Shown here: positions 16,641-45,151 of the stretch, one piece after another
How the letters are laid out: every line of letters starts with the position of its first letter
Numbering within the stretch: the stretch's first letter is position 1
Source: Leptospira sp.
GTDB taxonomy: Bacteria; Spirochaetota; Leptospiria; Leptospirales; Leptospiraceae
Length of the DNA: 64,000 nucleotides
Reading direction: 5' to 3'
Assembly: GCA_034439575.1 (NCBI GenBank)
Contig: JAWXAQ010000015.1
Span: forward strand, 96,001 to 160,000
Position numbers and translations under genes: made by a program
The notes under the pieces: generated by a model
Databases searched by the model: none
Seen by the model: only the letters and a program-made list of their open reading frames with translations
Told to the model about the DNA's origin: nothing

Positions 16641-17705
16641 CTATTTTTTTTTAATTTCAAATCGATAAACTCGCTGCATAGCAATCTCATCTAAACCAAG
16701 GATGGAAATACCAACTATAATGTGTTTGTTGATCTTTGAAATTTCCATTAGTCCGAAATTTTCTTTTGTATAAATGATGCTTTTTCTGCGACTATCTTCC
16801 ACTTCAATGGCTCTTTGTGGAATTGGCTTATTCATGGAACTTGAGGTGATATCAATAATTTGAAAGTCAGAATTTATTTTTTCTTCAAATATTTCAGCTA
16901 TGTGCCTATCTCCAGAAAGAATCAGATTTTTCCCTTTGGCATATTTTTCGAGAAGGGATATTAGTTTGCGCCGATCTTTTGGGAAATTACTCCATTTTTC
17001 GAAACGATGAGTATCGTTTAATACTTGTATGCTGGATGCGATTATGTACAAATCCGACTTTTCGTGCAGCTCTTTTTCTAACCAGACCCATTGTTCTTGA
17101 CCAAGTAAACTCGAGTTTATATCCTCATTGGGAATATACTCTCTTAGACCATCAGCTTCTGAAGTTTTTTCTTTGAGTTCGGTTCGAAATGAGCGAGTAT
17201 CCAATAAAATAAGCTTTATTTTTAGTCCTTGGAATAAAATTTTTTCTGAGGAAAAGATACCCTCCCTTTTTCGCATAACCGAATCAAGGGGAACATCTAA
17301 AAATTCCAAGAACAAATCTTTTGATTCATTTTTTAAGGGATAATCTTCACCGACATCATTGTAACCATAATCATGATCATCCCATACTCCTAAAATTTTT
17401 GTCCCTTGTTTCAATAAATTGTAATCTACATTTGACTTTTGTAAGTCATACGCTATTTTTTTTTCATCCATTTCAAAGGTATCTTGATAAATATTATCAC
17501 CTAACCATAACCAAATATTTGGTTCAGTCTTTAGAACGGACTTCCAAATTTTTTTTTCTAATTTTTGATCAAGGCAAGAGCCAAATGCGATTCGATATTT
17601 ATGCATTTGATCGGATTCTTTACTTTGTATAGAATTCTGAAAAAATAGTAATGCAAAAAATAGTATGCTTAATGTTAAAAATCGTAAGGAAACATTTTCT
17701 TTCAT
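16641..17705 (-). CDS. alkaline phosphatase D family protein
   Basis: Signal peptide, IAFGSC, LGDNIY, WDDHDY, LDTR, LSGDRH. Confidence 0.9.
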   Translation of the reverse strand: MKENVSLRFLTLSILFFALLFFQNSIQSKESDQMHKYRIAFGSCLDQKLEKKIWKSVLKTEPNIWLWLGDNIYQDTFEMDEKKIAYDLQKSNVDYNLLKQGTKILGVWDDHDYGYNDVGEDYPLKNESKDLFLEFLDVPLDSVMRKREGIFSSEKILFQGLKIKLILLDTRSFRTELKEKTSEADGLREYIPNEDINSSLLGQEQWVWLEKELHEKSDLYIIASSIQVLNDTHRFEKWSNFPKDRRKLISLLEKYAKGKNLILSGDRHIAEIFEEKINSDFQIIDITSSSMNKPIPQRAIEVEDSRRKSIIYTKENFGLMEISKINKHIIVGISILGLDEIAMQRVYRFEIKKK

Positions 17706-17860
17706 AAATCAAATTTGTAATAGTTAAAAAAGTAAGTCCAGCGAGTTCTAACGTACAATTATAGAAAAAAAAAATCTTAACAAGAAAATGTTACATTTCT
17801 AATCGATCACTATATATTAGTAGAACCGGCCAAATTAAAAGCAATATAAATAAATTGATC

Positions 17861-18017
17861 TCTAAACGAACTAGGCTACACGACGTTGTTCGTAACTGAA
17901 CCTCGTGTTAGTATCAGCGCGTCTTCTTTAAGAGCAAGAAGTCTGACGGAGGACTATGCGCCTTTAGACCGAGCGAGGGCGAAAATTCCGAGCGGAGCGT
18001 GTTTGCCGCAGTTATAC
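17861..18017 (-). repeat. attC-like site 1 (157 bp)
   Basis: On the - strand runs from inverse core GTATAAC to GTTTAGA; GC-rich imperfect palindrome homologous to 18801-18957 (shared AACGAACTAGGCTACACGACGTTGT, GCAAGAAG, TGACGGAGG, AGCGGAGCG, GTTATACG). Confidence 0.75.
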
Positions 18018-18033
18018 GAAGTTTGTGCTTTAA

Positions 18034-18459
18034 TTAAGCTTTTATCATTCTTTCATTGATGATTTTCAAAGACTTTCCTTTCTTTGATTTATAAGAACAA
18101 AAGTCACTATCTAAAGCGAATATATTATGAATATCGGAAACTTCAGAAATTGTCATAAGTGAAGCGTCAGCAAAATCCATTGGTCGATCAAAATATTTGT
18201 CCATGAAAAACAATATGGAGCTAAATTGTCCATTATCCTGGTTTAATATTGAAATAGCATTGTTATCAATCCATTCGATAAATGCCCTTTGTATTCTCTT
18301 ATTGTCTGACAATAAATAAGAAACTTCGGTAACAACTGCAAGTGATGTAAATAATTTACCTTTAAAATTCTTTAGAAAGGATCTACACTCAAGACAATAA
18401 TTATCAGATTCATCGAAAAAAGCAACGATGGGACCGGTATCAATAATTGCTTTTATCAT
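18034..18459 (-). CDS. vapC: VapC-family PIN-domain toxin
   Basis: IIDTG, VVTEV, MDFADAS, LDSDF acidic PIN residues; overlaps the antitoxin stop. Confidence 0.9.
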   Translation of the reverse strand: MIKAIIDTGPIVAFFDESDNYCLECRSFLKNFKGKLFTSLAVVTEVSYLLSDNKRIQRAFIEWIDNNAISILNQDNGQFSSILFFMDKYFDRPMDFADASLMTISEVSDIHNIFALDSDFCSYKSKKGKSLKIINERMIKA

Positions 18460-18700
18460 TTAAGTTTTTTTTCAATGCTTCTTTTATATATTTCTGATGG
18501 TTAATTGATTTATCGGAAATTCCGCTTTTATAAAGTCCGAAATATTTTTCACCTAATTCATATGCTGAAGGTTGCTTTGCGAAATTATCTATATAGTAAA
18601 CTAAAGATTCTTTAATTACTTCCGATTTGCTTTTATTTTCTATTTTAGCAACTTCTGATAGTTTTTTTTCAAGTTCTTCTGGTAATCTTAAGCTGATCAT
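18440..18700 (-). CDS. ribbon-helix-helix (CopG-like) antitoxin
   Basis: MISLRLPEELEKKL...KSKSEVIKESL; start set at 18700 by homology to 19364-19624. Confidence 0.88.
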   Translation of the reverse strand: MISLRLPEELEKKLSEVAKIENKSKSEVIKESLVYYIDNFAKQPSAYELGEKYFGLYKSGISDKSINHQKYIKEALKKNLNDKSNY

Positions 18701-18702
18701 AA

Positions 18703-18748
18703 TAACCTTGTGATACAAGTGTATCACAAGGTTAGATTTTCTTGTCAA
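18703..18748 (-). promoter_or_regulatory. TA promoter and palindromic operator
   Basis: Perfect 15-bp inverted repeat TAACCTTGTGATACA-AG-TGTATCACAAGGTTA (18703-18734); TTGACA on the - strand at 18743-18748. Confidence 0.75.
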
Positions 18749-18800
18749 GAGTTTGTTTTCTTCTTTATTCGAATCAAAAAATCCATTTAGCACAAATATC

Positions 18801-18957
18801 GCATAACGAACTAGGCTACACGACGTTGTCCGTAGCTGAGCCTCGCAGAGGCTTTAGCGTCGGCGCGACTTCTTGCAGCGCAAGAAGCGTGACGGAGGAC
18901 AATGTGCCTTTAGGCCAAGTATAAGTACCAAGCGGAGCGAGTCAGCCGTTGTTATAC
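18801..18957 (-). repeat. attC-like site 2 (157 bp)
   Basis: - strand GTATAAC...GTTATGC; internal hairpins CTTCTTGC/GCAAGAAG and AGCCTC/GAGGCT; same length as site 1. Confidence 0.8.
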
Positions 18958-18969
18958 GCTGGGTCGCGT

Positions 18970-19386
18970 TTACGGGGTAAATAAGTTTTTTAAAAACTTA
19001 CCTTTTAGAGTTTTATAGATTGAAAAATCAGAATCAATACTTATTATTCTTTCTATTCCGATTCTTTCGGAAATACACATAAGAGATGCGTCTGCTAAAT
19101 CCATTGGTAAGTCTGAATATTTTTTCATTCGATTTTTAATATATCTTAAATCTTCGATAGTTAAATCTATAATCTGAATACTTCCTCTTTCTATCCATTC
19201 GAGAAAATCCGATTGAGCATCATTTGAATAAGATAATAGATATATTACTTCTGTGACAACAGGCCAGGTTGATATTAATTCGCCTTTGAAAGACTTAAAA
19301 TATTTTAAACAAGGCTTATGAAATTTATCTTTTGAATTAAATAAGGCAATAATTGGTCCAGAATCAATTAGAACTACGTTTTGCAT
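18970..19386 (-). CDS. vapC: VapC-family PIN-domain toxin
   Basis: MQNVVLIDSG, VVTEV, MDLADAS, IDSDF; start at 19386 overlaps the antitoxin. Confidence 0.9.
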   Translation of the reverse strand: MQNVVLIDSGPIIALFNSKDKFHKPCLKYFKSFKGELISTWPVVTEVIYLLSYSNDAQSDFLEWIERGSIQIIDLTIEDLRYIKNRMKKYSDLPMDLADASLMCISERIGIERIISIDSDFSIYKTLKGKFLKNLFTP

Positions 19387-19624
19387 GTTTCTTATCAATT
19401 TTCTTCTGAAGATATTCTTTGCGATTTTGAGCCAAATCTTGGAGACCAGAATCGTATTTTCCAAATAGATCGAGACCTAATTCGTATGGAGTTTTAACAT
19501 TCCCTCTATTTTCAATATATTCTAGAATAGATTCCTTAACTACATCAGTTCGACTTTTTCCTTCAGCTTTTGCGAATGAATCTAATTTTCTTTCTAAATC
19601 TCGCGGTAGCCGTAAACTAATCAT
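19364..19624 (-). CDS. ribbon-helix-helix (CopG-like) antitoxin
   Basis: MISLRLPRDLERKL...KSRTDVVKESI...YELG. Confidence 0.88.
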   Translation of the reverse strand: MISLRLPRDLERKLDSFAKAEGKSRTDVVKESILEYIENRGNVKTPYELGLDLFGKYDSGLQDLAQNRKEYLQKKIDKKHAKRSSN

Positions 19625-19632
19625 TTTGAAAA

Positions 19633-19659
19633 TGTATCACAAATACGTATTACTGTCAA
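19633..19659 (-). promoter_or_regulatory. putative TA promoter and operator half-site
   Basis: TGTATCACAA shared with the 18703 operator; TTGACA on the - strand at 19654-19659. Confidence 0.55.
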
Positions 19660-20169
19660 ATAGTATTTTTTCTTTTTACTCATTGACTATTGTAGATTAC
19701 CCATGTCCTAATTCATACATTCGCGACCTTGCGCATAACGAATTAATTATCAAATGTCTGAAAAAATTTTCTATTGATAGTCAAAATAATTTCAATATTA
19801 AAAAATTATTAACCTCGATGAATTCCGTTATGATTACTTAGAAAAAAATTCAACTCATTTTATTTATGCGGCAACTAATTCGAGAAATTATCTTAATAGC
19901 GATCAAGTAATTCATGAGTTTTTCAAACCTTATTCTCAAAATAAATATTCATAATTTTTTTATCTGAATTAAAAGCTAACATTAAAGATATACTAGTGCC
20001 AATATATGAATTTTACCTAAACTTTAATTTTTATTTAGATTTCCTCAAATATTAAGATTCATTTATTTAATTGAAATCTTTAATTGTGGCTGATGCATTA
20101 GATGTAAAATGTTTGCAATGATTATCTAAAGATCTTCTGGATCATTAGATAATTAAAGGATACTAAACC

Positions 20170-20544
20170 ATGACACAAGAAGATATAAACTCTAAATTTC
20201 CGCATTCTTCATTTATTTAATTTCTTGAGAAACTACTTTCCGATTTTCAATCTAAACCAAAAAATGAAAGACTTCTTCTGCTCGAAATTACGTATCATTT
20301 CCTAGAACTGGATCTTGCCGAAATATAAATTCCGATTCTTTTTCGATCCAGGTTCTGGCCCTGGCTACTGGAGGCAGACGATGGGACGAAAGCTAAATAC
20401 GACTACGCGGTCGACAATCGTGAATTACCTTTAGACGAAAGTATCCGATTCGAAAATTACAAAATGGCTCTGTTAGAGATCGTAAGAAAAGAACTCGGCG
20501 AAAAATACGAAATAATCGATGAATCGGGTAATGATATCGTTTAA
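20170..20544 (+). pseudogene. pseudogene of a ~124-aa hypothetical protein with two in-frame TAA codons
   Basis: AAGGA RBS, ATG 20170, frame continues through TAA 20218 and TAA 20326 to TAA 20544. Confidence 0.55.
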
Positions 20545-20770
20545 CCGCGCCAGAGATGTTTTGCTTAAGCCCTTTTGCCCAGTTGTATGAAATTTACGAC
20601 TAACCACTGTGATAATGGCGTGAGTCCCAAATTCCTCGATTTGCATTTTGGTCTTCTTTCATAGAAAGTTTTTTGAATTTTACAGCGATTATGTGACATG
20701 ATATTATCGGGAGAATTTAAATATTATAATCCTAGATAATCTTGAAATTCGATTGGGAAGTTTAATCTTT

Positions 20771-22135
20771 GGGAAATTAATGCAATTCGTTAAAATGCAG
20801 ATCGAACGGATATTTGCATCGGAAGTTTACAATAGCTAAAATATTTTCAAGATTGAGATATCTCCAATCGTCCTTTATTACAATCCTGCATCCGTTCGAT
20901 TGTTCATCCCTCCGATCTTCCCTTGAAAAAATCATAACATTTGAATGTTTTACGAAATACGTAAAAATCCAAAGACTTTAACTCTTTCTTTGTTAGCATC
21001 CCAATTCGAACCCAAATGAATCCTGTAGCTCCTAAACAGAATTCTGAATAGGATGTGTAAATGTTGGGAAATTATCGCATTTTGTTAAAATGCCGATCGA
21101 ACAGAGAATTAGATCAGAAGTTTTCTATGAGTAAAGTATTTTATAGAATGAGTCATTATGAATCAAACTTGCCCGATACCTTTCATTCAATGACATATTC
21201 CCACATTCTTTATAACATTCCTGCATCCAGCAGGTTTTCCGTCAGAAAAGCCTACAAATTTGCATATTTTGAAGCTGTGCCTTAAAATTCTAATAAGTTC
21301 GATAGGAAACTCCATTATAAACCCGTCCAAATCAGGATCAAAATGAATCTGGTAGCTCCAATCTCAGAATTTGACCTCGATGCTTACGTCTTTTCATTTT
21401 TCCTAAGGATTCCAAATCTCGAGGGATTTATTGATATTGCAAAAATTCAATTTGGATCGGAAATTTATCATTGATCGAAAGCCATTTAGATTTATTGGAA
21501 TATTAGAATAGAGTGAGTCGTGTCGATTGAAGGCCGTCATTCGGAAATTGACCAAAAATGGTATGTTTTACGAAATGCGAGTAAATCGAATCGACCCAAA
21601 TCCAATACTTTCCCTCTACTCTCGCTCCAATTCCAAAACACAATCCTTGCTCAATTTTCTAAAAATTTCTCATTTTTCCGGTGGAAACTAGAATTTTCTG
21701 AAATTGGCGCATTTCGTTAAAATCCAACAGATGACTCGAATTTACCCACCTATACAATTTCGATCCGAATTTATCAAGACTATCCTTCGGAATTTGACCA
21801 AATTTGGCACGTTTTACGCAATGCAGAAAAAACGCAATATCTCAGATCTCAATTTTACCCCCACTACACTCGCAAAAATCTCATCCAAAATATATCCATT
21901 GGATTCAAAACTCGGACTTTTCTCGGTTTCTATAAATTTTGCATTTTTCCGAAGGAAATCAGAGTTTTCGGAAATTTCAGCAATGCAATAAAAACCAACA
22001 ATCAATCTTAATTTGCATAACAATCCAGTCCTAAATCGAATTTTAGACGCTCGAACCGTTCCCCTGCCCTATTTTTAATTTTTCCTTCGGAAATTTTCTA
22101 AAAATGACACGTTTTACGTAATACAGGTAAATTCC
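20771..22135. repeat. degenerate tandem array, about five units of 270-360 bp
   Basis: Recurrent GGAAATT..GCAWTTYGTTAAAAT (20771, 21066, 21699; degenerate at 21423, 21970) and GTTTTACGNAAT (20947, 21565, 21811, 22111). Confidence 0.75.
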
Positions 22136-22202
22136 GAAGTAGATTAGAACCCTTACTTCCACAAAAGTATCTGAATCCTTAAAAATTATATCATCTGCGC
22201 CA

Positions 22203-22320
22203 CCGATCGAAGCGTAAATCCTTCCCTTGCTAAATAATTTATTGAATAAGGAAAAAATCGGAAGATTGCAGCGTAGAGCGGGACCCGAAGCAATGCTAGC
22301 AATTGATTCGGGGGCGCCCC
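22203..22320. repeat. REP-like GC-rich intergenic element
   Basis: CCGATCGAAGCGTAAATCCTT...AAGATTGCAGCGTAGAGCGGG, then CCCGAA...TTCGGG; resembles dispersed repeats recalled from Leptospira genomes. Confidence 0.45.
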
Positions 22321-22531
22321 AATAATTAACATACGCAAAAATTAAAAATTTTTAAATTAGCTGCGATTTTTAATCGATGATTCATCTATTTATTTTATTT
22401 CAAAAAATGTGCTTTAGTTAGGTGTCATAGAACGCCGAATAGGAGAAGAAATACGAACATTCGCTACAGATTCAATAAATTGTCTTTTTTAATTATTGAT
22501 AATGTAACGGAAATTGTATGATAAATTCTAA

Positions 22532-22939
22532 ATGAAAAAGAAAATGATGATGCTTAAAAATAAAAATTCTATGAATATAGTTCATTTCATTCACCAAACG
22601 CAAAAGTACACAACGTTCACATTTTCAAAATGGAACACCTTACAGTTGAATGCGAAAATTCAGATGCATGGATGTTTATCTACTTACATCGATTTTTTGA
22701 TAGATAGATATTCCTTTAGAGTTTATGAAACATTCAAGTTTAACAAAATCGCCTTAGACCAAGAGGCCATGATTCATTCAGAAGAAAAAATGAGGATCAA
22801 GTGTCGCATCTTTGAATCCACACTTGATGAATTATCCGAACTCGCGGAATATGCAATGATGAATAAAACTAAATTATTTAGAATTTTATTAAAGTGGGAT
22901 ATCAATAATCCAAGTCCGAGACTCAGGCTTATCGCCTAA
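22532..22939 (+). CDS. DUF1564-like protein (putative C-terminal RHH)
   Basis: KMRIKCRIFESTLDELSELAEYAMMNKTKLFRILLKWD strand-helix-helix pattern; start uncertain. Confidence 0.55.
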   Translation: MKKKMMMLKNKNSMNIVHFIHQTQKYTTFTFSKWNTLQLNAKIQMHGCLSTYIDFLIDRYSFRVYETFKFNKIALDQEAMIHSEEKMRIKCRIFESTLDELSELAEYAMMNKTKLFRILLKWDINNPSPRLRLIA

Positions 22940-23337
22940 AAAGAGGCTAATTCGTTTGTTAGATAAATTCTGAATTCTTCTGGAATAGATTTTTTCAAAC
23001 CATTACGATAATCATAATATACTTGTACAGTTTTTGCTCTAACATGTTCTAATTTTCTATTTTCATTCCAAATACTATATTGAAAATCCCAAGATGTATT
23101 TCCGATTCTCGATACCCAAATTCTAACTTCAATTTGGTCACCGGGCAATACCGAAGCGACTAAATCCATTTCGACTCGAGCCAGAACAAATGGAATGTCT
23201 TCCAGTGTATCAATTTTCAGATATTTATTACAAAAATGCAATCGTGCAATTTCTAAATACGAGGAATAACTAGCGTTATTGACTCTTCGCATAGGATCCA
23301 TATCATTAAATCGAATTTGTATAGGAGCGGAGATCAA
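22936..23337 (-). CDS. acyl-CoA thioesterase (4HBT/FcbC family)
   Basis: IRFNDMDPMRRVNNASYSSYLEIAR. Confidence 0.9.
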   Translation of the reverse strand: MISAPIQIRFNDMDPMRRVNNASYSSYLEIARLHFCNKYLKIDTLEDIPFVLARVEMDLVASVLPGDQIEVRIWVSRIGNTSWDFQYSIWNENRKLEHVRAKTVQVYYDYRNGLKKSIPEEFRIYLTNELASF

Positions 23338-38078: not shown

Positions 38079-39245
38079 CTAATCTTTTTTAGAAGCGGCT
38101 TCTTTAATCACATAGGCTGCGATTTCATTTTTTTGAATTTGAGTCGTTCCTTCAAAAATTGTCAAAATCTTAGCATCTCTCATGAGTTTCTCAACAGGAT
38201 ACTCTTTCGTATATCCGTATCCACCAAAAATCTGAACAGCATCAGTAGCATTTTGAACCGCAATTTCCGACGCATAAGCTTTTGCTATTGCAGAATATTT
38301 CGGAAGGTTAGGATCATTAGCATCCGATAGGCGAGCTGCTTTGTAAGTAATTTCTCTTGCAGTTTCAACTTTGATCGACATATCAGCTAACATGTGTTGA
38401 ACTGCTTGGAAAGTTCCAATTTTTACACCAAACTGTTCTCTCTCACGCGCGTAACGAGCTGCATGATCAAGTGCTGCTTGTGCTACACCAACACCCATAA
38501 CAGCAACGAATGGACGTGAAGCATTTAATGTTTGCAATGCGTAAACGAAACCGAGATTTTCTTTTCCGACTAACGCGTCTTCACCAACTTCGCAATCTTC
38601 AAAAATTACTTGGTGAGTAGACGAAGCACGAATACCAAGTTTATCTTCTTTTTTCCCGACAGTTAATCCTTTCGCAGAACGAGGAACATAAAAACAAGAT
38701 ACTCCGCGTGTTCCACGATTTTTGTCAGTATAAGCAAACACGGTAAAGGCTTGGGCATCACCAGCACCAGTGATCCACTGTTTTGCGCCGTTGATGATCC
38801 ACTTATCACCTTTTTTCTCAGCACGAGTTGTCATACCAGGCACATCAGAACCAGCACCTGGCTCAGATAAACAAAAAGACACACCAAATTTTCCATCAGC
38901 AACTGGAGGTAACCACTTTAACTTTTGTTCGTGGGTAGCACCTTTTAGTATGGGAAGGATACCAAGACCTGTATAAGCAAAGCCAAGGGCAATACCAAGA
39001 CAGCCACGCGACAATTCTTCGATCGCCAAACACTGCTCAATCGCTCCAAGTCCCCATCCACCGTATTCTTCTGGGATCACTAGGCCATTGATACCTAGTT
39101 CTGCCCGCATTTTATTGATAAGTTCAGTCGGATGTTGGTTTTTTTCGTCCCAATGCAGTGCTACTTCATGCGGGATTTCTTTTTTTACAAAATTACGGAC
39201 TAAATCTCTGATTTCAAGCTGTTGCTCTGTGAATTGGCTGTACAT
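38079..39245 (-). CDS. acyl-CoA dehydrogenase
   Basis: CLSEPGAGSD, NGAKQWIT, KLGIRAS, QIFGGYGY, IFEGTTQIQ. Confidence 0.96.
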   Translation of the reverse strand: MYSQFTEQQLEIRDLVRNFVKKEIPHEVALHWDEKNQHPTELINKMRAELGINGLVIPEEYGGWGLGAIEQCLAIEELSRGCLGIALGFAYTGLGILPILKGATHEQKLKWLPPVADGKFGVSFCLSEPGAGSDVPGMTTRAEKKGDKWIINGAKQWITGAGDAQAFTVFAYTDKNRGTRGVSCFYVPRSAKGLTVGKKEDKLGIRASSTHQVIFEDCEVGEDALVGKENLGFVYALQTLNASRPFVAVMGVGVAQAALDHAARYAREREQFGVKIGTFQAVQHMLADMSIKVETAREITYKAARLSDANDPNLPKYSAIAKAYASEIAVQNATDAVQIFGGYGYTKEYPVEKLMRDAKILTIFEGTTQIQKNEIAAYVIKEAASKKD

Positions 39246-39363
39246 TCCGGGAGGTTCCTTCTAAGAATGGGATATTTACTACCTTTTTTCGTACATTGCA
39301 TTTGGTGCCAAGGGTTTTTCTGTCTTTACAAAATGCGCAAAATACACTAGCGTACTCACCTGT

Positions 39364-40371
39364 ATGCCAACGTTTCGAATTCAACTCAAATCTTTCAAAA
39401 TCCCTTCCACTTATCTATTTCTAGCGGTCTTTTTAACTGGAATCGCCTGTAGTGGACGACCCAATTATGAACCAAAGCCTGTCCCGACTTATGCAAATTT
39501 TGATGCCTTTTATCAAGCGAAATTGGCAGAAAGCAAAGCAAAAGGCCACAGACCGGGCAATGAAGAGCGTTATATCGGCTTTGGTAAAAAAACCCCACTT
39601 GCCTTTCTTTACATTCACGGATTCGGTGCCTCTCGCGCAGAGGGAGAAGCAGTCATGGAAGTATTGGCCAAAAAATTTAAGGCAAATACTTACTTGGTAA
39701 GACTTCCAGGCCATGGAACAAATAAAGAAGACCAAGCCGCACAAAATTTTTCTGACTACTTGGATGCTTCCAGAGAAGCTTTAGAAATGATGCAAGGCCA
39801 AGGAGACCGAGTAGTATTATTTGGTTCTTCCCTTGGTGGACTTCTCATCACTTGGCTTGCTTCCGAATATCCGGACAAAGTAGCTGGTGTCGTTTTAGCG
39901 AATCCCTTTTATGGTCCCGTTGACAAAAGTTTGAATATTCTCAATTATCCAGGCGGTCTCACCTTCATTCACCTTCTGAAAGGAAAAGTAAGAAACACGA
40001 CCAAACAAAGTGACCCACGAGTTTTGCCTGGGCGAAACGATTATTGGTATCCTGAACAATATTTTTCTTCCCTTGTTGGTGTGAATGACCTAAGAAATTT
40101 TGCCTCTCATCCAGATGTTTTCAAAAAAGTAAAAGTTCCGGCTCTACTTCTCTATTATTATAAAAGCGAAACAGAACAAGATCCCACAGCCAGCGTTCCT
40201 TTGATGCTTTCCGCCTATGGCGCATTTGGTGATACAATGCCTAATTCAAAAAACAAATTAGTAAAAGTTGAGAATGGTATGCATGTACTTATGTCAAAAT
40301 GGATCGTAACCGACAAAGCATTGATAGAAAAGGAAACCGAAGGTTGGCTTAAAGAGGTTTCTAAAAAATAA
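39364..40371 (+). CDS. alpha/beta hydrolase lipoprotein
   Basis: Lipobox IAC, IHGFG, LPGHG, GSSLG. Confidence 0.88.
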   Translation: MPTFRIQLKSFKIPSTYLFLAVFLTGIACSGRPNYEPKPVPTYANFDAFYQAKLAESKAKGHRPGNEERYIGFGKKTPLAFLYIHGFGASRAEGEAVMEVLAKKFKANTYLVRLPGHGTNKEDQAAQNFSDYLDASREALEMMQGQGDRVVLFGSSLGGLLITWLASEYPDKVAGVVLANPFYGPVDKSLNILNYPGGLTFIHLLKGKVRNTTKQSDPRVLPGRNDYWYPEQYFSSLVGVNDLRNFASHPDVFKKVKVPALLLYYYKSETEQDPTASVPLMLSAYGAFGDTMPNSKNKLVKVENGMHVLMSKWIVTDKALIEKETEGWLKEVSKK

Positions 40372-40374
40372 TTT

Positions 40375-41079
40375 ATGTTGGATCAAAACCGCATCGCTCT
40401 TGTAACAGGCGCTAATCGTGGAATCGGAAAACAGATCGCTATGGATCTTGCCGCGATTGGTGTATTTGTCATCGTTGGTTCAAGAAACGAAGAAGAAGGT
40501 GAGATTACAAAAGACTTAATTTTAAAAAAAGGCGGGAGAGCAGAACTTTTTCCCGTTGATGTTTCAAAAGAAAAATCATTAACAGCTCTCTCTGATTATG
40601 TAGAAGGAAGTTTTGGGAGATTAGATATTCTTATTAACAATGCTGGGATATTTTTAGATACTGGTGAGTTTGTAAATACGTCAATGGAAGAATTAACTTC
40701 CACCTTACAAACAAATGTAGCAGGCCCTCTTCGTCTGATTCAATTATTTCTCCCCCATATGATTCAAAACAATTATGGTCGTATCGTCAATGTTAGCTCA
40801 GGCATGGGCCAATTATCCGATATGGGCACAGGATATCCAGCTTATAGAATTTCTAAAACGGCGATCAATGCGATCACAAAAATCGCAAGTGCGGAAACAT
40901 CAGGAAAAAATATAAAAGTAAATTCTGTTTGTCCCGGTTGGGTAAAAACGGATATGGGTGGTCCCAATGCGAGTCGATCCATTGAGAAAGGGGCTGAAAC
41001 TATTGTTTGGGCCGCATTACTTCCAGACGACGGCCCTACTGGAAAATTTTTCAGAGATAAGAAGGAAATTGAGTGGTAG
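40375..41079 (+). CDS. SDR-family oxidoreductase
   Basis: TGANRGIG, NNAG, YRISK, CPGWVKTDMGG. Confidence 0.95.
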   Translation: MLDQNRIALVTGANRGIGKQIAMDLAAIGVFVIVGSRNEEEGEITKDLILKKGGRAELFPVDVSKEKSLTALSDYVEGSFGRLDILINNAGIFLDTGEFVNTSMEELTSTLQTNVAGPLRLIQLFLPHMIQNNYGRIVNVSSGMGQLSDMGTGYPAYRISKTAINAITKIASAETSGKNIKVNSVCPGWVKTDMGGPNASRSIEKGAETIVWAALLPDDGPTGKFFRDKKEIEW

Positions 41080-41150
41080 AGATAGTTTTTATCTAATTGA
41101 AAATCATATCGAACGCCTAGTTAACGTTTGACGGATCAATGCGATAAACT

Positions 41151-41187
41151 TATCCATGCTCGTGCTCGAAAGCAAAAGGCATGGATA
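41151..41187. terminator. hairpin between convergent genes
   Basis: TATCCATGC...GCATGGATA. Confidence 0.45.
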
Positions 41188-41192
41188 GAATT

Positions 41193-41708
41193 TCAGACGA
41201 TTTCTACTAATAACTTATCTAGTTCCAAATAACATTCCGCCATACCATCTGCCGCTCCGGTTTCAAGCATCATCTTACAAACTTCAGCGGAACCGTATCT
41301 ACATAGATGTGTCATAAGAGTCTTATCACCTTCAGTCGTGAAAGTCCGTGACTCGAAGGTAGCACCGGGATCTTCGGGAGCATTTGGATCGAATGTCGAC
41401 ATATCCATCACATAATTCTCGCTATTGGCTAATTTTTCAGGTATGATCACCTCTTTAAATGTCCCATAAACGCCGGATTTATTTCCCTGTGAATCCATAT
41501 AAAGATACAAGTATTTGCCACCAACCTTTAGATCTTGTTCGCAAGTTTCAAGAACCATACCTTCAGGACCAATCAGCCATCGACGCATTAACTCAGGTTT
41601 GGTGTGGCAGTCGAATACCAAAGCCCTCGGGGCTGAGAAGTAGCGAGTAAAAACGACTTCTGTTTCACCTCGAATTTCCATCTTCACTTCATTTTTTTCG
41701 GTTTTCAT
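41193..41708 (-). CDS. SRPBCC/AHSA1-domain protein
   Basis: TRYFSAPRALVFDCHTKPELMRRW, DLKVGGKY. Confidence 0.88.
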   Translation of the reverse strand: MKTEKNEVKMEIRGETEVVFTRYFSAPRALVFDCHTKPELMRRWLIGPEGMVLETCEQDLKVGGKYLYLYMDSQGNKSGVYGTFKEVIIPEKLANSENYVMDMSTFDPNAPEDPGATFESRTFTTEGDKTLMTHLCRYGSAEVCKMMLETGAADGMAECYLELDKLLVEIV

Positions 41709-42048
41709 TTTGTTTATCTCCCTTTGATTGTATTGTTTGTAATTCTTCTAATAGTCCATCTAACACTTGGTAACGTGATTCCCACAATTGGCGGTATTTT
41801 TCCATCCATTCGATCGCAACTTTTAGAGGGGCGGTTTCCAAACGTCGCGGTCGTTCTTGGGCACGGATCGTTGTCGAAATAAGCCCGGCTTTTTCCAAAA
41901 CTCTTAGGTGCCGAGAAATAGCGGGCTGGCTCATATGAAAAGGTTTTGCGAGCTCCATAACTGTAGATTCGCCAGTGGCAAGGCGCATTAGTATTTCTCT
42001 ACGAGTGGGATCAGCGAGGGCAGCGAATGTGGAATCAAGTGTTTGCAT
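41689..42048 (-). CDS. ArsR/SmtB-family regulator (SRPBCC-associated)
   Basis: FAALADPTRREIL, MSQPAISRHLRVLEKAGLI; start 42048 or 42054. Confidence 0.9.
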   Translation of the reverse strand: MQTLDSTFAALADPTRREILMRLATGESTVMELAKPFHMSQPAISRHLRVLEKAGLISTTIRAQERPRRLETAPLKVAIEWMEKYRQLWESRYQVLDGLLEELQTIQSKGDKQNENRKK

Positions 42049-42174
42049 AACCATCTTGTTATATAAATAACTGGCTATACGAAAGAAATAAGTCAACCTA
42101 AATTTTTATTATAATTCATATATTGACCTCTTTTTTTAGAACTAGAATGAACGACATTCATCAACCTTAAATCC

Positions 42175-42294
42175 AGAACGAACGGGACAATGGCAAAATG
42201 CTTGCTTGTGTAAGCTAGCGAGTGCTAGAAGAAATATGTGACAAAGCCCGAGCGAATGTTTGTCCCGAAGTGCAGCGTTAAGCCACCGTTAGTC
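42175..42294 (-). repeat. truncated attC-like site
   Basis: Inverse core GACTAAC 7 nt after the stop of 42302-43009; CGGGACAA/TTGTCCCG and CTAGC/GCTAG inverted repeats; distal arm missing. Confidence 0.55.
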
Positions 42295-42301
42295 GCTCTA
42301 C

Positions 42302-43009
42302 TTATTTATTCCAAGCTACAACTTTTACGCCTGGAGAAAAATGAGAGCAAAAAGGCTTATTAAAATCAACAAAGTTACTAAATTCATTGTATTTAATATT
42401 TAAGTCAGTTATATCGATATTCAATAATTCCCAAGGTTTATGATGAATTTCTAATCGTTTGATACTTTGATTACAATACTGATACAAACAATATCGTTCC
42501 GTAAGCCAATGATCCCTTTCGGAAATATTTTTTAAATTTGAAATTTTATATTTGATATCAATTTCACTTCGTTTGCCTGTTAAAGCGAAGGAATTTTGGT
42601 TTCTAATAATATTTGAATGTTTGTAAGGTAATCCTGACATTACGTTTGCTAAAATTGTCGGAATCAATTTTTCAGCTTCAATACTTAAAAAATAAACACC
42701 TTGTTTTTCATTATTTTTTACATAAGTTCTGAGATTTATTTCATGAAAATTTGAAATTGGATTTAATTGAAAAGAATTCCGGATATGGATTCTATTCATT
42801 GTAAATGCAACGATTGAAATCCAAGTTTCATTATTAAAAGAATCTAAAATTAAATCTTTAGGAACGAATTTTCGTAAAATACCTTCATCTATTTTGTAAT
42901 GAAGAAAAATTGCATTATTCCATTCTTGATACCAAAACCATTTTCTTTTTGGATAATCCCAAGGTCGATGACTAGTATGTTTTAGTATTTCTTCTATTTC
43001 AGAATTCAT
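42302..43009 (-). CDS. DUF2071/YqjF family protein (cassette-like)
   Basis: QEWNNAIFLHY, FHEINLRTYV, GVYFLSIEA, LTERYCLY, IHHKPW. Confidence 0.88.
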   Translation of the reverse strand: MNSEIEEILKHTSHRPWDYPKRKWFWYQEWNNAIFLHYKIDEGILRKFVPKDLILDSFNNETWISIVAFTMNRIHIRNSFQLNPISNFHEINLRTYVKNNEKQGVYFLSIEAEKLIPTILANVMSGLPYKHSNIIRNQNSFALTGKRSEIDIKYKISNLKNISERDHWLTERYCLYQYCNQSIKRLEIHHKPWELLNIDITDLNIKYNEFSNFVDFNKPFCSHFSPGVKVVAWNK

Positions 43010-43125
43010 TTAAAAGCATGGTTGCTAACTAATAATTGCATGGGATCTTTTTTTGTTTATATATTTAGTTTAAAATAATTGGTTATAAAAATTTAACATA
43101 AACTTTGTTAATCAAAATTAGGCGA

Positions 43126-44430
43126 TCACAAATTTAACGGAATTATTGATTCCCTCTTCGGTTTGATTTTCTTTTTCAATTCCTCAGCTTCTAATTCTTC
43201 CGGTATAGCGAAAATCTTTTTTGGCTTAGCTATCCCTTTTAACTTATGTTCCCCGATTTCTTGCCATCTAACACCGATTTCATTGGCAAATTCTTCGGAA
43301 GCAAGCACAGCTTTTTTGAGCTCTCCACACATCCCCGCGATGCGACTCGTTAAATTGACAGCCTCTCCGATGACTGTGAAATCCAATCTGTCATTGGATC
43401 CTATATTTCCATATCTAATTTCTCCTAAGTGCAATCCTACTCCATGTAAAATGCGAGTCTGGCCGATCTTTTTCCTTTCCTTATTTAATTTCATTAATAG
43501 CAAAAAAACTTCTCTAACAGCAATTAGAGCTTTATAACCGACTCTCTTTTTTGATTTATTATCATAGGGAAATACAGCAAGGATGCCATCACCTAACATC
43601 TTTAATACTTCTCCACCATTCCGCTCTATAACCGGAATCACAAGGCCAAAATAAGCATTTAAAAGTTCTACTGTATCTTCGGGTGATAATCTTTCACTGA
43701 TACCAGAATAATTTCGAATATCAGAAAACCAAATGATGGAATTAATTTTTTCTAAATCACCCCTATAAATTTTTCCAGAATTAACTAGAGCACCAGTCGT
43801 TTTTCCTAAATATATACTTAATAAACTCTGAGTCAGGTCAGCCTGTAAAAAAGTAACCCACTTAACAGATATTACATTTAATGCTCGAATTAAAAATTGA
43901 ATTTCATCTTCTGAGAATCCGCCAACTTTATTTGTAAGTAAACTCATAAATGCGAATGAATTGCCTGCCTGTACTACAGGAACCGCCAGATAACCCGTTG
44001 GTTTAAATTCGGCTAACTCTTGAAGTATAGGATAAGGATACTCTTCACCTTCATGTTCTGTAAAAGAGAAATAATATATTTTTTTAGTCGTTAACACATA
44101 ATGAATGGGGCTTGTCGAAAATTGGTTAGAGGCAATCGAACCCAACTTAAAACGAGATTCTCTCAAATATCCTGTGCCAAAATTATGAACAAACGATGAG
44201 TGAAATAAAGGATTTGGTTGCGTTTCCAATAGTCCTTCGCTTCCTTTAGGAACCCAAAGATAAGCCATTGTTTCAACTTGCGGGTGTAAGGTTCGCGTTC
44301 CCATATTCCCACGAAGAAGTTGGAACTTCTCCTTAACCAAAAATTCCATAAAATTGTGTAATAGTTCGGCACCAGACCTTGCCGTCTGGCTATGAACTAT
44401 GTACCAATCCAAAAAGTTTTCTAACATCAA
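43126..44430 (-). CDS. class III adenylate/guanylate cyclase
   Basis: WFSDIRNYS, LKMLGDGIL, FTVIGEAVNLTSRI. Confidence 0.9.
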   Translation of the reverse strand: MMLENFLDWYIVHSQTARSGAELLHNFMEFLVKEKFQLLRGNMGTRTLHPQVETMAYLWVPKGSEGLLETQPNPLFHSSFVHNFGTGYLRESRFKLGSIASNQFSTSPIHYVLTTKKIYYFSFTEHEGEEYPYPILQELAEFKPTGYLAVPVVQAGNSFAFMSLLTNKVGGFSEDEIQFLIRALNVISVKWVTFLQADLTQSLLSIYLGKTTGALVNSGKIYRGDLEKINSIIWFSDIRNYSGISERLSPEDTVELLNAYFGLVIPVIERNGGEVLKMLGDGILAVFPYDNKSKKRVGYKALIAVREVFLLLMKLNKERKKIGQTRILHGVGLHLGEIRYGNIGSNDRLDFTVIGEAVNLTSRIAGMCGELKKAVLASEEFANEIGVRWQEIGEHKLKGIAKPKKIFAIPEELEAEELKKKIKPKRESIIPLNL

Positions 44431-44434
44431 AAGT

Positions 44435-45151
44435 TTATTTTACTTCTACGATCAATTCGTAATCGCCTTCTATAACATCTTTAGCGCCAGTTACACTGAT
44501 GAAAACTCGATATGGATTCCCGACGGCTCTCAATTCAATAGATTGAGGAACGTTTGGTTTGGAAAAATCAGGCTGTCCAATCCAAGTAGGATGGGATGCT
44601 TCACAGCTCACCGCACCATGCACGTTTGGTGGGATGTATTTAGGTTCAAATCCGCTGAAGGCATAAAGATTGATTCTTTTGGAAGGGTCTTTCGGTTTAA
44701 CAGTGATCACCATCGTACTTTTTTTTGGTAAGTCAGTCCAATAAAACACTTGGTTGCCTTCAAATTCAATATTGCGAATACCAGGCCAACAAGCCATACT
44801 ACTTGACTCTGCCCATTCCAGATCTTCCATGATCGCACCTGTTTTTAAATTTCCATTGATAGTTACAGATTTCTTTTTCTCTGATTTTATAAAAGTAACC
44901 CCAGGAACTTGCGCCATTTCTTTGATTCTATCAATTGTCACAACCTCATCATAGCTATCCGCATAACCATCATAATGCACCAAAAATCCTTCAGCTTGCA
45001 CTTTTAGAATTTTACCACTATATGATTTTTTTGTTTTAGGATCAGTAACTTCGACTCTATCCCCAACTGTAAAATTTGGACCGGCAATGAGTGAATAAAA
45101 AGTAAAAATATAAACAAATAGAAATTTTGTATAGGTTACAGGTTTTCTCAT
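44435..45151 (-). CDS. secreted protein with Tudor-knot/chromo-barrel-like N-domain
   Basis: Signal peptide, VGDRVEV...GKILKV...FLVHYDGYADSYDEVV. Confidence 0.65.
   Translation of the reverse strand: MRKPVTYTKFLFVYIFTFYSLIAGPNFTVGDRVEVTDPKTKKSYSGKILKVQAEGFLVHYDGYADSYDEVVTIDRIKEMAQVPGVTFIKSEKKKSVTINGNLKTGAIMEDLEWAESSSMACWPGIRNIEFEGNQVFYWTDLPKKSTMVITVKPKDPSKRINLYAFSGFEPKYIPPNVHGAVSCEASHPTWIGQPDFSKPNVPQSIELRAVGNPYRVFISVTGAKDVIEGDYELIVEVK

Follow-up and report, generated by a model that had tools for sequence, protein, structure and literature searches.

An orphan toxin–antitoxin cassette pair in Leptospira and its probable origin in a genus-specific integron-like gene-capture system

Introduction

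Integrons are defined by an integrase carrying a special insertion, which is thought to be needed for the recombination of folded single-stranded sites. The cores of these attC sites follow the consensus RYYYAAC/GTTRRRY, and the sites themselves range in length from about 57 to 141 nt. Sedentary chromosomal integrons, such as the superintegron of Vibrio cholerae with its integrase VchIntIA and its VCR sites, share with the Leptospira system described here long arrays in one orientation, mostly single-gene cassettes, a folded, imperfectly palindromic site with AAC/GTT cores, and a cassette start that is complementary to the cassette's own inverse core. They also carry toxin–antitoxin (TA) and defence cargo, as here, according to the accessible text of two sources (PMC13108822; bioRxiv 10.1101/2024.07.02.601686), while the 'inverted-integrase' integrons of Treponema have, in the accessible parts of the corresponding reports, a recombinase that is co-directional with the cassettes, as in Leptospira (PMC4889954, PMC3607928). 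The IntegronFinder categories of CALIN and of single attC sites without an integrase, as set out in the available text of PMC4889954, are comparable to the present locus in that two adjacent sites occur with no integrase nearby; the locus is CALIN-like provided that its sites can be counted as attC-type. Among the supplementary files of that work other than files 1, 2 and 13–15, 'Leptospira' appears in the genome list only.

The rAID-1 clusters of Bacteroidales consist of a 5′ XerD-family tyrosine recombinase, co-directional genes and repetitive intergenic sequences described as 'reminiscent of integrons'; recognized by a recombinase with 44% or more identity to that of the B. fragilis reference and by co-directional low-GC genes downstream, they occur in 226 of 423 genomes of one order (bioRxiv 10.1101/471110, accessible text). 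Judged by that partial description, their layout is like that found in three of the genomes studied here (G016, L057 and G020), but rAID-1 belongs to another phylum and another repeat family, and its cargo is described as T6SS immunity genes, whereas TA and defence genes prevail here and an immunity-type domain (SUKH-1) was found in 1 of 133 unique cassette proteins.

An 'integron-like' subgroup of simple tyrosine recombinases has also been delineated, into which an IntI relative without the insertion fits; according to the accessible text of that work, integrons cannot function without the insertion, and for members that lack it no arrays downstream are named there, nor does Leptospira occur (PMC8138268). 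Literature naming Leptospira together with integrons, attC, CALIN, cassettes or tyrosine recombinases yielded no description of arrays of the present kind, and the L. biflexa genome paper contains no occurrence of integron, cassette, recombinase or palindrom. The window analysed here is a stretch of 64,000 nucleotides from a Leptospira sp. assembly. With a probability of roughly three in four, its segment 17861–19739 represents an orphan array of two cassettes from a Leptospira-specific, integron-like system of gene capture, which, as far as the literature searched extends, we read as a previously undescribed variant of the integron principle.

The two-cassette array

Both 157-bp elements of the array are located 3′ of the stop codons of two VapBC-type TA pairs (Table 1), and the coordinates, the homology and the gene order that an earlier note had assigned to them were all confirmed on the minus strand. 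A check of the sequence placed GTTATGC at 19739–19733 and GTATAAC at 18957–18951 and 18017–18011, with the first element ending in GTTATGC and the second in GTTTAGA. The two elements share three blocks that align without gaps, one of 66 nt (80% identity), one of 48 nt (88%) and one of 36 nt (78%), and a core-spanning 14-mer at 19732–19745 is repeated at 18800–18813 with 13 of 14 positions matching. The two sites are 940 nt apart, and the cassette units measure 932 and 940 nt if the cut lies between G and TTA of the core, where the crossover in the boundary of cassette 1 is presumed to fall. As the earlier note had stated in calling the array CALIN-like, no integrase is nearby; indeed, contig C15 carries no tyrosine recombinase. 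The array appears as two TA pairs with GC-rich tails inside an AT-rich intergenic region.

Table 1. Features of the two-cassette array and of a further site copy in the window.
Feature	Positions	Strand	Details
5′ boundary of cassette 1	19722..19739	-	GTTA core; arm of 18 nt (GTTATGCGCAAGGTCGCG) complementary to the 3′ arm of the same cassette
Promoter-like site, cassette 1	19631..19659	-	TTGACA-17-TACATT, TG-extended; 10/12 consensus matches; upstream of antitoxin 1
Antitoxin 1, ribbon-helix-helix, 86 aa	19364..19624	-	PF01402 RHH_1, E 2.4e-6
Toxin 1, PIN-domain (VapC-like), 139 aa	18970..19389	-	PF01850, E 3.1e-10; 26-nt overlap with antitoxin 1
attC-like site 1	18801..18975	-	Arm of 18 nt specific to the cassette (18975-18958) plus the conserved, branched 157-bp element (18957-18801)
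5′ boundary and arm of cassette 2	18790..18807	-	GTTATGCGATATTTGTGC; 15/18 complementary to 18018-18035; A at position 11
Perfect 15-bp inverted repeat, 2-nt gap	18703..18734	.	100% complementary; immediately precedes antitoxin 2
Antitoxin 2, ribbon-helix-helix, 86 aa	18440..18700	-	PF01402, E 4.5e-5; DUF6290, E 2.2e-5
Toxin 2, PIN-domain (VapC-like), 141 aa	18034..18459	-	PF01850, E 7e-8; 20-nt overlap with antitoxin 2
attC-like site 2	17861..18035	-	Arm 18035-18018 and 157-bp element 18017-17861; last site of the mini-array
Decayed third site copy	42131..42297	-	CM R1 37.8 bits, E 1e-8; nhmmer E 8.6e-10

In both pairs a PIN toxin gene is preceded by an overlapping gene for a small DNA-binding antitoxin (PF01850 and PF01402), which is the VapBC layout. 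The ribbon-helix-helix (RHH) antitoxin gene overlapping a downstream PIN toxin gene, together with an operator-like palindrome and a promoter-like site upstream, is shared with type II VapBC modules; the genes themselves are nothing unusual, the cassette packaging being the unusual part. Antitoxin 1 additionally matches the RelB-like model NF048017 (E 2.5e-7), under that model's cut-off. The inverted repeat upstream of antitoxin 2 is probably the operator of this antitoxin. As for the promoter that the cassettes had been said to carry, a candidate does precede antitoxin 1 and is the joint best among 11 such sites in the region, a count not above the 9.9 expected by chance, and its assignment as the promoter of cassette 1 is plausible only.

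The third site copy lies directly 3′ of the stop codon of a 235-aa ORF (42302–43009, minus strand) and has its 3′ core replaced by TAGTTCTAAAAAAAG. Single sites are also scattered elsewhere in this Leptospira genome, including two single cassettes with matching starts, one carrying HicAB (L002) and the other a 293-aa gene (L004).

Arrays and cassette boundaries in relatives

The site family was detected in 100 of the 114 Leptospiraceae genomes searched. Relatives of the same genus contain arrays in which nearly every unit carries a different single gene: the array of G016 comprises 50 profile hits, all on one strand, over 63 kb (1689048–1752453), and that of G007 comprises 107 full copies and one partial copy, all on the plus strand, over about 124 kb (2286638–2410660). 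In all 148 cassettes that contain an ORF of 40 aa or more, the ORF runs in the same direction as the site, the remaining 7 of 155 having none, and the 148 proteins fall into 116 families. Copies elsewhere do follow the stop codons of variable single genes, the opposite of what the earlier note had named as refuting its reading. Pfam matches were obtained for 66 of the 133 unique cassette proteins, about 24 of which are TA parts; further cargo domains include Abi_alpha, AbiTii, GmrSD, SIR2, TIR, OLD-TOPRIM, Shedu, RT and NACHT.

The boundaries of the cassettes follow a rule. Over 47 pairs of successive sites in G016, the 16 nt starting from the GTT of one site match the reverse-complemented left flank of the next site at a mean of 14.0 positions, compared with 9.1 for the flank of the same site and 9.35 for random pairs, and the analysis was replicated in G007 over 93 pairs (13.30 for the next site, versus 9.70 for the same site and 9.66 for random pairs). 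The complementarity extends to position 17–18 and then drops to background level; position 11 is never complementary, with A opposite C in 42 of 43 pairs in G016 and 89 of 93 in G007. Both cassettes in the window obey the rule, since in each of them 15 of the first 18 positions complement the stretch just ahead of the cassette's own ATAAC core; in cassette 1, the arm GTTATGCGCAAGGTCGCG pairs in this manner with 18958–18975 and carries the family's fixed A at position 11. The flank that follows the GTT of site 2 (TTAGAGATC...) has C instead of A at this position and is for this reason no cassette start. As in integrons, the nucleotides that follow the crossover are part of the next cassette and are complementary to the inverse core of that same cassette. 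This was the decisive test, and the earlier description of the two units as integron-type cassettes is supported.

Toxin 1 (VapC1) has orthologues of 77–85% identity in 21 of 40 other genomes of the genus, in part within arrays, and toxin 2 (VapC2) has orthologues of 81–91% identity in 14 of 40, for example within the G007 array at 2379912. With the flanking chromosomal proteins at 38–60% and 61–77% identity, the cassettes have spread between species by horizontal transfer. The DNA of the toxin 2 cassette is 79.5–85.5% identical in the 11 loci compared, and in all 11 the same cassette is flanked by different neighbours. Neither TA pair nor element is present beside the flanking PhoD-like gene in the three nearest relatives (G020, G052 and G024), so that the pairs are not fixed in synteny; the 6 kb beside this gene in the three genomes have nothing else in common with the window, and 2.8 kb upstream of the array are unique to the present genome. 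In the nearest relatives the two flanking genes are on different contigs, and no pre-insertion sequence could be read.

The array recombinase and mobility of the cassettes

The array is directly downstream of a co-directional tyrosine recombinase in G016, L057 and G020, with the first cassette of L057 beginning 75 bp after the recombinase stop codon. Adjacency is not universal: in G007 about 1.9 Mb separate the recombinase from the array, and the 15 kb downstream of the recombinase contain no site. The connection of this catalyst with the sites is therefore a correlation. Of the 41 genomes of the genus, 37 encode an orthologue of the recombinase; covariance-model matches number 0–9 in the four genomes without it and at least 24 in 32 of the 37 with it, related genomes not being independent samples. 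Comparison of six first-cassette junctions for a shared attI motif revealed little in common beyond TC immediately before GTTA.

A search for IntI-like recombinases had been recommended by the earlier note, and the enzyme that heads the arrays of relatives answers to it in part. Its closest solved relative is the Vibrio integron integrase VchIntIA (2a3v; sequence E 5.8e-40, fold E 5e-16), and the catalytic residues are intact, with Arg207, Lys232, Arg311, His334 and Tyr343 invariant in 40 orthologues. On the other hand, it scores below the IntI family cut-offs (189.7 versus 265 for TIGR02249 and 210.7 versus 220 for NF040815), matches TIGR02249 in two pieces that skip model positions 184–245, and lacks the IntI-specific insertion, having 31 residues where VchIntIA has 62 and thus being 31 short exactly there. 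It further differs from the integrases of sedentary chromosomal integrons in possessing an extra N-terminal domain resembling HARP, UvsW-N and XPB, for which the fold matches are middling (Z 7.0, 6.6 and 4.5) and Foldseek returned no PDB match at E ≤ 0.001 (best E 0.03). The array recombinase is assigned to the IntI/XerA group and is not a canonical IntI; the system is integron-like in its working, yet lacks one of the features that define integrons. The nearest relatives outside Leptospira in genome contigs include two Bacteroidetes among five records, at 25–37% identity overall.

The earlier note had the cassettes mobilized in trans by a recombinase encoded elsewhere, which the present genome does not bear out: its 37 contigs contain no cognate recombinase, the best match being 33% identical, none of its proteins exceeds the TIGR02249 cut-off (best 83.9 bits versus 265), and the syntenic nadB locus, intact on a 335-kb contig, is without a recombinase gene. 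It is nevertheless conceivable, albeit unlikely, that the cassettes are still mobile here through a paralogous tyrosine recombinase (G000:C11:40601-41545) or through a cognate recombinase on DNA missing from the assembly. The paralogue is 30–33% identical to the array recombinase from residue 45 onward, which is low for a shared site specificity, and it is followed by a same-orientation repeat row of its own with a VapBC-like pair; that row belongs to a different repeat family of about 125 bp, in which the type-1 profile, i.e. that of the sites described here, weakly matches just two short pieces (44755–44815 and 44175–44203). Contig C21 starts inside a type-1 site, which would suit missing DNA, but only 8 such sites exist genome-wide, against at least 24 in most relatives. 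Sequencing depth over the element (191–369 in runs X3, X5, X6 and X8) far exceeds that on the flanks (about 14 in X3), and X3 derives from the same kind of habitat as the possible source runs X1 and X2; from this spike, and from 13 loose ends that diverge at 18799/18800, no more follows than the presence of many further copies in the communities. Metagenome contigs of the same four runs contain no clean excision joint over 16700–20700, and contig joints at 18015->18800 (side 27) and 18490->19942 (side 21) were discounted as short-sided and repeat-prone. The run listing suggests a metagenome-derived assembly; since a repeat-rich array and its recombinase could have dropped out in assembly or binning, loss of the recombinase from this genome is not secure.

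Fold of the sites

The site, of about 175 nt, is organized around invariant ATAAC/GTTA cores enclosed by an outer stem of 17–18 bp, which is formed by the cassette's own two ends; inwards follow an unpaired spacer, a second covarying stem and a conserved branched tip. Across 100 copies, 98.8% of cells pair, compared with 82.5% after shuffling (none of 500 shuffles reached the observed value) and at most 50.5% when slid, and 21 of the 35 pairs of the branched fold display compensatory changes. These include 5 of 6 pairs in helix 2 (columns 15–21 with 166–172), and covariation extends to the inner helices. In the outer helix 99.5% of cells are paired, with AAC opposite GTT as inverse cores; the core AAC and the G and last T of its partner (TAAC...GTT in window numbering) are invariant, and the middle T is at least 90% conserved. 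The 7-mer cores, GYATAAC/GTTATRC, are one position off the integron consensus, and the second (L) stem past an unpaired spacer, with a terminal structure, is of the integron type. Compared with those of sedentary chromosomal integrons, the Leptospira sites are distinguished by their length (157–180 nt, with 157 nt in the window and 151–188 nt in relatives), by the sequence conservation of the branched tip, unusual in degree, by the 17–18 bp outer stem and by fixed mismatches in place of bulged extrahelical bases, none of which occur in the consensus fold. The spacers in this fold are 4 and 7 nt long; the single fixed mismatch of the outer stem, at position 11, is A/C on the top strand or T/G on the bottom strand, and columns 19 and 168 in helix 2 are unpaired.

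Covariance model R1, built from the 100 copies, scores 135.6 bits at 18798–18960 and 108.5 bits at 17858–18020, matches that arise partly by construction as both window elements are among these copies, while the third copy is not in the model. A long, branched attC-like variant, as the earlier note had envisaged, is upheld by covariation. Its description of the elements as palindromic does not extend to single copies, since DNA folds of both strands of both elements outperformed shuffles in 1 of 4 cases (z 0.24, 1.24, −1.03 and −2.78); with three of the four no better than shuffles, single-sequence folding energy was dropped as evidence. Counts of G·U versus A·C within the element helices offered too few cases for a choice of strand, only the fixed mismatch at position 11 being informative.

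Covariation alone fits DNA and RNA folding alike, and the elements always lie just after stop codons, as would a genus-wide intergenic repeat acting at the level of RNA or transcription, whether as a 3′-end stabilizer, a terminator or a REP- or MITE-like element, the arrays then being gene islands that accumulate repeats. The observations comprise the site family, the arrays, the flank rule, the covariation, the features and adjacency of the recombinase and the spread of cassettes between species, and no recombination event or product is among them, which would suit such a repeat as well. It is, however, very improbable, since an RNA or terminator role leaves four observations unexplained: covariation ties the bases behind each site to the far end of the gene unit that follows and not to the site's own flank, the arms are cassette-specific yet complementary, one cassette recurs between different neighbours in every locus compared, and in three genomes arrays start at the gene for a tyrosine recombinase. 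In an Rfam scan of 17000–23000 with E values up to 1, no family matched the elements. Least credible of all is an origin of the pair by local tandem duplication, with one TA-plus-element unit copied and the copies then diverging, in place of two insertions, for although the units are co-linear and homologous along their whole length, repeat families D1–D7 recur at spacings of 924–946 and the two PIN toxins are paralogues with 46% identity, both toxins have closer relatives in other species than in each other, and each unit has its own matched pair of arms, whereas duplication would not yield differences between units along with a match within each.

Conclusions

In the integron-like gene-capture system to which the two cassettes probably belong, each unit would be a self-expressed VapBC-type TA pair ending in an attC-type site that folds as single-stranded DNA. 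A recombinase, presumably the enzyme found at the head of arrays, would read the shape of the site and cut in the GTTA core, cassettes leaving as circles and entering at the site at the array head or at secondary sites. The bottom strand probably serves as the substrate, since the outer stem's one fixed mismatch is T·G there and A·C on the top strand. The cassettes in the window may have arrived by such insertion after horizontal transfer and, with the recombinase perhaps lost from this genome, would persist without a cognate recombinase in the assembly, probably helped by their addictive TA genes. This reading would explain why TA pairs whose tails are rich in GC occur in an intergenic region rich in AT: they would be relics or outposts of the system.

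A broader proposal, which we hold to be somewhat better than an even bet, is that Leptospiraceae possess a family-wide second integron lineage, whose arrays of up to 124 kb bank TA and anti-phage genes. Its recombinase, an IntI/XerA relative, would never have had the insertion or would have lost it, and its N-terminal HARP/UvsW-like, DNA-structure-specific domain may instead read the folded, branched single-stranded site, with the fixed G·T wobble of the bottom strand marking the strand that is recombined. Arrays of 50 to about 107 units bear out the cassette signature of integrons in quantitative terms, but their associated recombinase lacks the insertion and carries a different, putatively structure-binding domain. 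If the proposal is correct, the insertion held to be essential for integron chemistry would be one of at least two solutions, and saprophytic Leptospira would offer a culturable and genetically tractable test bed in which the origin of integron-type recombination from Xer-like enzymes and its minimal requirements become testable. The arrays would also amount to a large reservoir of mobile genes for TA modules and phage defence in Leptospira that had so far gone unremarked.

Organization of the mini-array

The earlier note had described two toxin–antitoxin cassettes on the minus strand in the order core, promoter, toxin–antitoxin pair, element, second pair and second element, and the same order was found on reading the sequence (see the table). 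The homology claimed for the two 157-bp elements was likewise borne out, as they align in three ungapped blocks with 78–88% identity; neither matches an Rfam family. Folded as single copies the elements give a weak signal: z lies between −2.78 and 1.24, and shuffles are beaten in just one case of four. Promoter-like sites number 11 in the region against 9.9 expected by chance, which is no excess.

Features of the mini-array (window coordinates)
Feature	Position	Strand	Remarks
5' core GTTATGC	19739–19733	−	sequence read
Promoter-like TTGACA-17-TACATT	19659–19631	−	joint best site of the region
Antitoxin 1	19624–19364	−	ribbon-helix-helix, 86 aa; overlaps toxin 1
Toxin 1	19389–18970	−	PIN, 139 aa; overlaps antitoxin 1
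Element 1	18957–18801	−	157 bp, from GTATAAC (18957) to GTTATGC (18801)
Perfect 15-bp inverted repeat	18703–18734		upstream of the second antitoxin/PIN pair
Antitoxin 2	18700–18440	−	pairs with PIN toxin 2
Toxin 2	18459–18034	−	PIN; pairs with antitoxin 2
Element 2	18017–17861	−	157 bp, ends in GTTTAGA

Directly upstream of the mini-array lies a 2.8-kb stretch (window 19740–22530) with no open reading frame longer than 95 aa, which is composed of degenerate repeats of ~270–330 bp (families D1–D5) and, except for a Flavo-1-like piece, was found in this genome only. It could be made up of decayed cassettes.

Copies, arrays and cargo

A genome-wide BLAST search with the element, one of the checks proposed in the earlier note, returned four copies in the organism's own genome (G000): the two in the window, one 3' of a HicA/HicB pair (locus L002) and one 3' of a 293-aa gene without a Pfam match (locus L004). 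A profile built from 52 copies added C13:4824–5019, C21:2–115, C21:727–899 and a decayed copy at window 42139–42303. A covariance model trained on 100 copies gives eight matches in this genome and places the decayed copy at 42131–42297, directly 3' of the stop codon of a 235-aa open reading frame.

The element was detected in all 24 sampled genomes of the same genus and in none of 16 from the neighbouring family. Covariance-model matches (E ≤ 1e-5) occur in 100 of 114 Leptospiraceae genomes, including 39/40 in the organism's own genus, 22/22 in genus g21 and 24/24 in genus g22, and all 80 loci with the exact 3' motif among the matches listed (of at least 216) are from Leptospira. In two related genomes the element forms long arrays on a single strand, with 50 copies spaced mostly by ~1 kb in G016 (1689048–1752453) and 107 full copies and one partial copy in G007 (2286638–2410660).

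The cargo of these two arrays was analysed over 155 cassettes. Seven have no open reading frame of 40 aa or more. In each of the other 148 the longest frame is on the strand of the site, with its stop codon at the start of the site. The encoded proteins fall into 116 BLASTP families; copies outside the window thus come after variable single genes, one of the points on which the earlier note had considered its proposal open to refutation. Pfam matches (1e-5) were obtained for 66 of 133 unique proteins. About 24 are toxin–antitoxin components (PIN, ten; BrnT, five; MazF; HepT, two; HEPN; Fic/Doc, three; HicB, two), and many of the proteins are of defence type, among them Abi_alpha, AbiTii, GmrSD_N, SIR2_2, SEFIR/TIR, AAA_15 with OLD-TOPRIM, Shedu SduA_C, a reverse transcriptase, NACHT and RelA_SpoT. 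Transposases of two kinds of insertion sequence are also present: the G007 array contains an IS481-like gene (rve, LZ_Tnp_IS481) five times over without sequence differences (for example L090:3649–4872), and a second type lies in the G016 array (L063:12728–13750), so that the arrays also gather insertion sequences.

Fold and flank complementarity of the site

The consensus fold obtained with RNAalifold from 100 copies has, from the outside inwards, a stem around the ATAAC/GTTA cores, an internal loop (4 nt/7 nt), two more stems and a branched tip bearing hairpins. Paired cells amount to 98.8%, against 82.5% in shuffles, none of 500 of which attains this figure. With the partners slid the share is 50.5% at most, a contrast that is inflated because the alignment that gave the structure was also the one scored. 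The covariation in the aligned copies is nevertheless clear, both in the size of the pairing effect and in the variety of compensatory changes found in helices 2, 5, 7 and 8; changes on both sides affect 21 pairs and 542 cells, compared with 166 cells in shuffles. The site shares with attC sites the layout of R-box, spacer, L-box and terminal structure, but is longer and has a conserved tip, and its consensus fold contains no bulged bases.

The hallmark of integron cassettes is set by the place of the cut, within the 3' core: what lies beyond it is the start of the next cassette and pairs with the inverse core of that same cassette. The Leptospira arrays behave in this way: over 47 consecutive pairs in G016, the 16 nt starting at the GTT of one site agree with the reverse-complemented left flank of the next site at a mean of 14.0/16 positions, compared with 9.1 for the left flank of the same site and 9.35 for random pairs. 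This was replicated over 93 pairs in G007 (13.30 for the next site, against 9.70 and 9.66, respectively). Complementarity reaches position 17–18 and is at background level beyond. Positions 9–18 vary between cassettes and are matched within each cassette, which suggests that base pairing, and not the binding of a protein to the sequence, is what constrains them. At position 11 the two sides never match; A stands against C in 42/43 and 89/93 pairs.

The same rule holds in the window. Cassette 1 starts with GTTATGCGCAAGGTCGCG at 19739 and cassette 2 with GTTATGCGATATTTGTGC at 18807; against the reverse complements of 18958–18975 and 18018–18035, respectively, each agrees at 15/18 positions, and each has A at position 11. 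Beyond the last site, position 11 of the flank is C and the flank lacks a partner, which fits the end of an array. Matching starts are also found in the HicAB cassette and the 293-aa cassette of the same genome.

The array recombinase

In G016 the array is preceded by a co-directional gene for a 363-aa tyrosine recombinase, which adjoins a nadB-like gene and ends up ~900 bp upstream of where the sites begin. Recombinase and array are also adjacent in G020, which is among the nearest relatives, and in L. ilyithenensis (L057), where the first cassette begins 75 bp past the recombinase stop codon; in G007 the orthologue adjoins the same nadB-like gene, yet is ~1.9 Mb from the array. The interval between stop codon and first cassette in L. 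ilyithenensis (L057:11105–11175) contains a 9-bp inverted repeat, TTCGGTTAT...ATAACCGAA, each arm of which includes a GTTAT/ATAAC core, and which is a candidate array-head (attI-like) binding site.

Orthologues with at least 50% identity are encoded by 37 of 41 genomes of the genus, and at least 24 model matches (per-genome counts of 24 being lower bounds) were obtained in 32 of these 37. The genomes without an orthologue, G000, G022, G055 and the 67%-complete G054, have 8, 1, 9 and 0 matches, respectively. The presence of the orthologue thus goes with a high site count, an association that is only suggestive since related genomes are not independent.

The recombinase comprises PF13495 and PF00589 domains, and its catalytic residues Arg207, Lys232, Arg311, His334 and Tyr343 are invariant across 40 orthologues. 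The nearest families both score below cut-off (NF040815, XerA/integron integrase, 210.7 versus 220; TIGR02249, IntI, 189.7 versus 265). Among solved structures the Vibrio integron integrase (2a3v) is the closest, both in sequence (E = 5.8e-40) and in predicted fold (pLDDT 88.9; Foldseek E = 5e-16), but the alignment is interrupted at the VchIntIA-specific insertion, where 31 residues stand opposite 62 in VchIntIA. Residues 1–78 are predicted to form an extra β-β-α-β-β-α-β domain, which matches Pfam HARP in nine of 40 members (best 27.3 bits, cut-off 25). Modelled alone (pLDDT 89.2), it is closest to the N-terminal domain of T4 UvsW (Z = 7.0, r.m.s.d. 2.1 over 63 residues), followed by those of archaeal XPB (Z = 6.6) and the HARP domain of SMARCAL1 (Z = 4.5, 22% identity). 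These three domains bind forked or branched DNA. Sequence and predicted fold are concordant for a HARP/UvsW/XPB-like domain, an assignment that is a lead rather than proof given the middling Z values and a Foldseek E value no better than 0.03.

A second tyrosine recombinase (305 aa, 30–33% identical to the array recombinase) is encoded in the organism's own genome within the region C11:40601–46900 (L067 spans 39101–43039). It is directly followed by a different repeat of ~125 bp (type 2), with at least five copies in the same orientation over 5 kb and a VapBC-like pair between the first two. This looks like a second, distinct cassette system; at least 27 copies of the type-2 repeat occur across the genome, frequently grouped in small clusters (C35 32–37 kb, C8 231–235 kb, C30 and C7). 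Rfam Flavo-1 (RF01705), a family described from Flavobacteria, matches this genome at 33 places, of which 23 exceed the gathering score, including one at window 22194–22289 (+; 46.7 bits, gathering score 42). Many lie within 100–300 bp of a type-2 repeat (for example C11 42874, C35 32213, C22 29466 and C8 232209), and Flavo-1 could belong to a DNA recombination site instead of being an RNA.

Origin of the window cassettes

Both window cassettes are far better conserved between species than their surroundings. VapC1 is 77–85% identical in 21 of 40 other genomes and VapC2 81–91% identical in 14 of 40, for example inside the arrays of G007, G003 and G045, while the flanking PhoD-like and thioesterase proteins are 38–60% and 61–77% identical across species. 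The DNA of the whole of cassette 2 is 79.5–85.5% identical in 11/11 loci with unrelated neighbours, and beside the PhoD-like gene of the three nearest relatives neither toxin–antitoxin pair nor the element is present. From these comparisons the cassettes are read as horizontally acquired and inserted at a secondary site.

The earlier note had regarded the pair as a CALIN-like array mobilized in trans by a recombinase encoded elsewhere. The integron-type cassettes, the long branched site and the lack of a nearby integrase support the first part of this proposal; mobilization in trans is not supported in this genome, as none of the five tyrosine recombinases in the assembly is orthologous to the array recombinase (best 33% identical), and none is found beside the nadB locus on its 335-kb contig. 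On the other hand, the assembly possibly derives from metagenome runs, and in such runs the depth of the element is 13–26 times that of its flanks, so that the organism's own array and recombinase could be missing from the assembly.

Relation to known systems

In the accessible text of a 2013 paper, Treponema is the sole spirochaete clade found with integrons (PMC3607928). That of the IntegronFinder paper mentions Spirochaetes in general terms only, and among the supplementary files searched Leptospira is named in the genome list only (PMC4889954). No published description of these arrays was found in the openly accessible literature searched. Among published systems, rAID-1 of Bacteroidales offers a parallel in which the enzyme is not an IntI; the preprint, in its accessible part, describes co-directional genes behind a 5' XerD-family recombinase and, between the genes, repeats that are 'reminiscent of integrons' (bioRxiv 10.1101/471110).

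The mode of working of the Leptospira system is that of sedentary chromosomal integrons, the closest being the 'inverted-integrase' type of Treponema, but its recombinase lacks the insertion that defines IntI, a feature that a survey of tyrosine recombinases, in its accessible text, calls 'not fully conserved' in the integron-like subgroup (PMC8138268). The system is best read as integron-like in kind with a non-canonical recombinase, and the mini-array as an orphan outpost of it.
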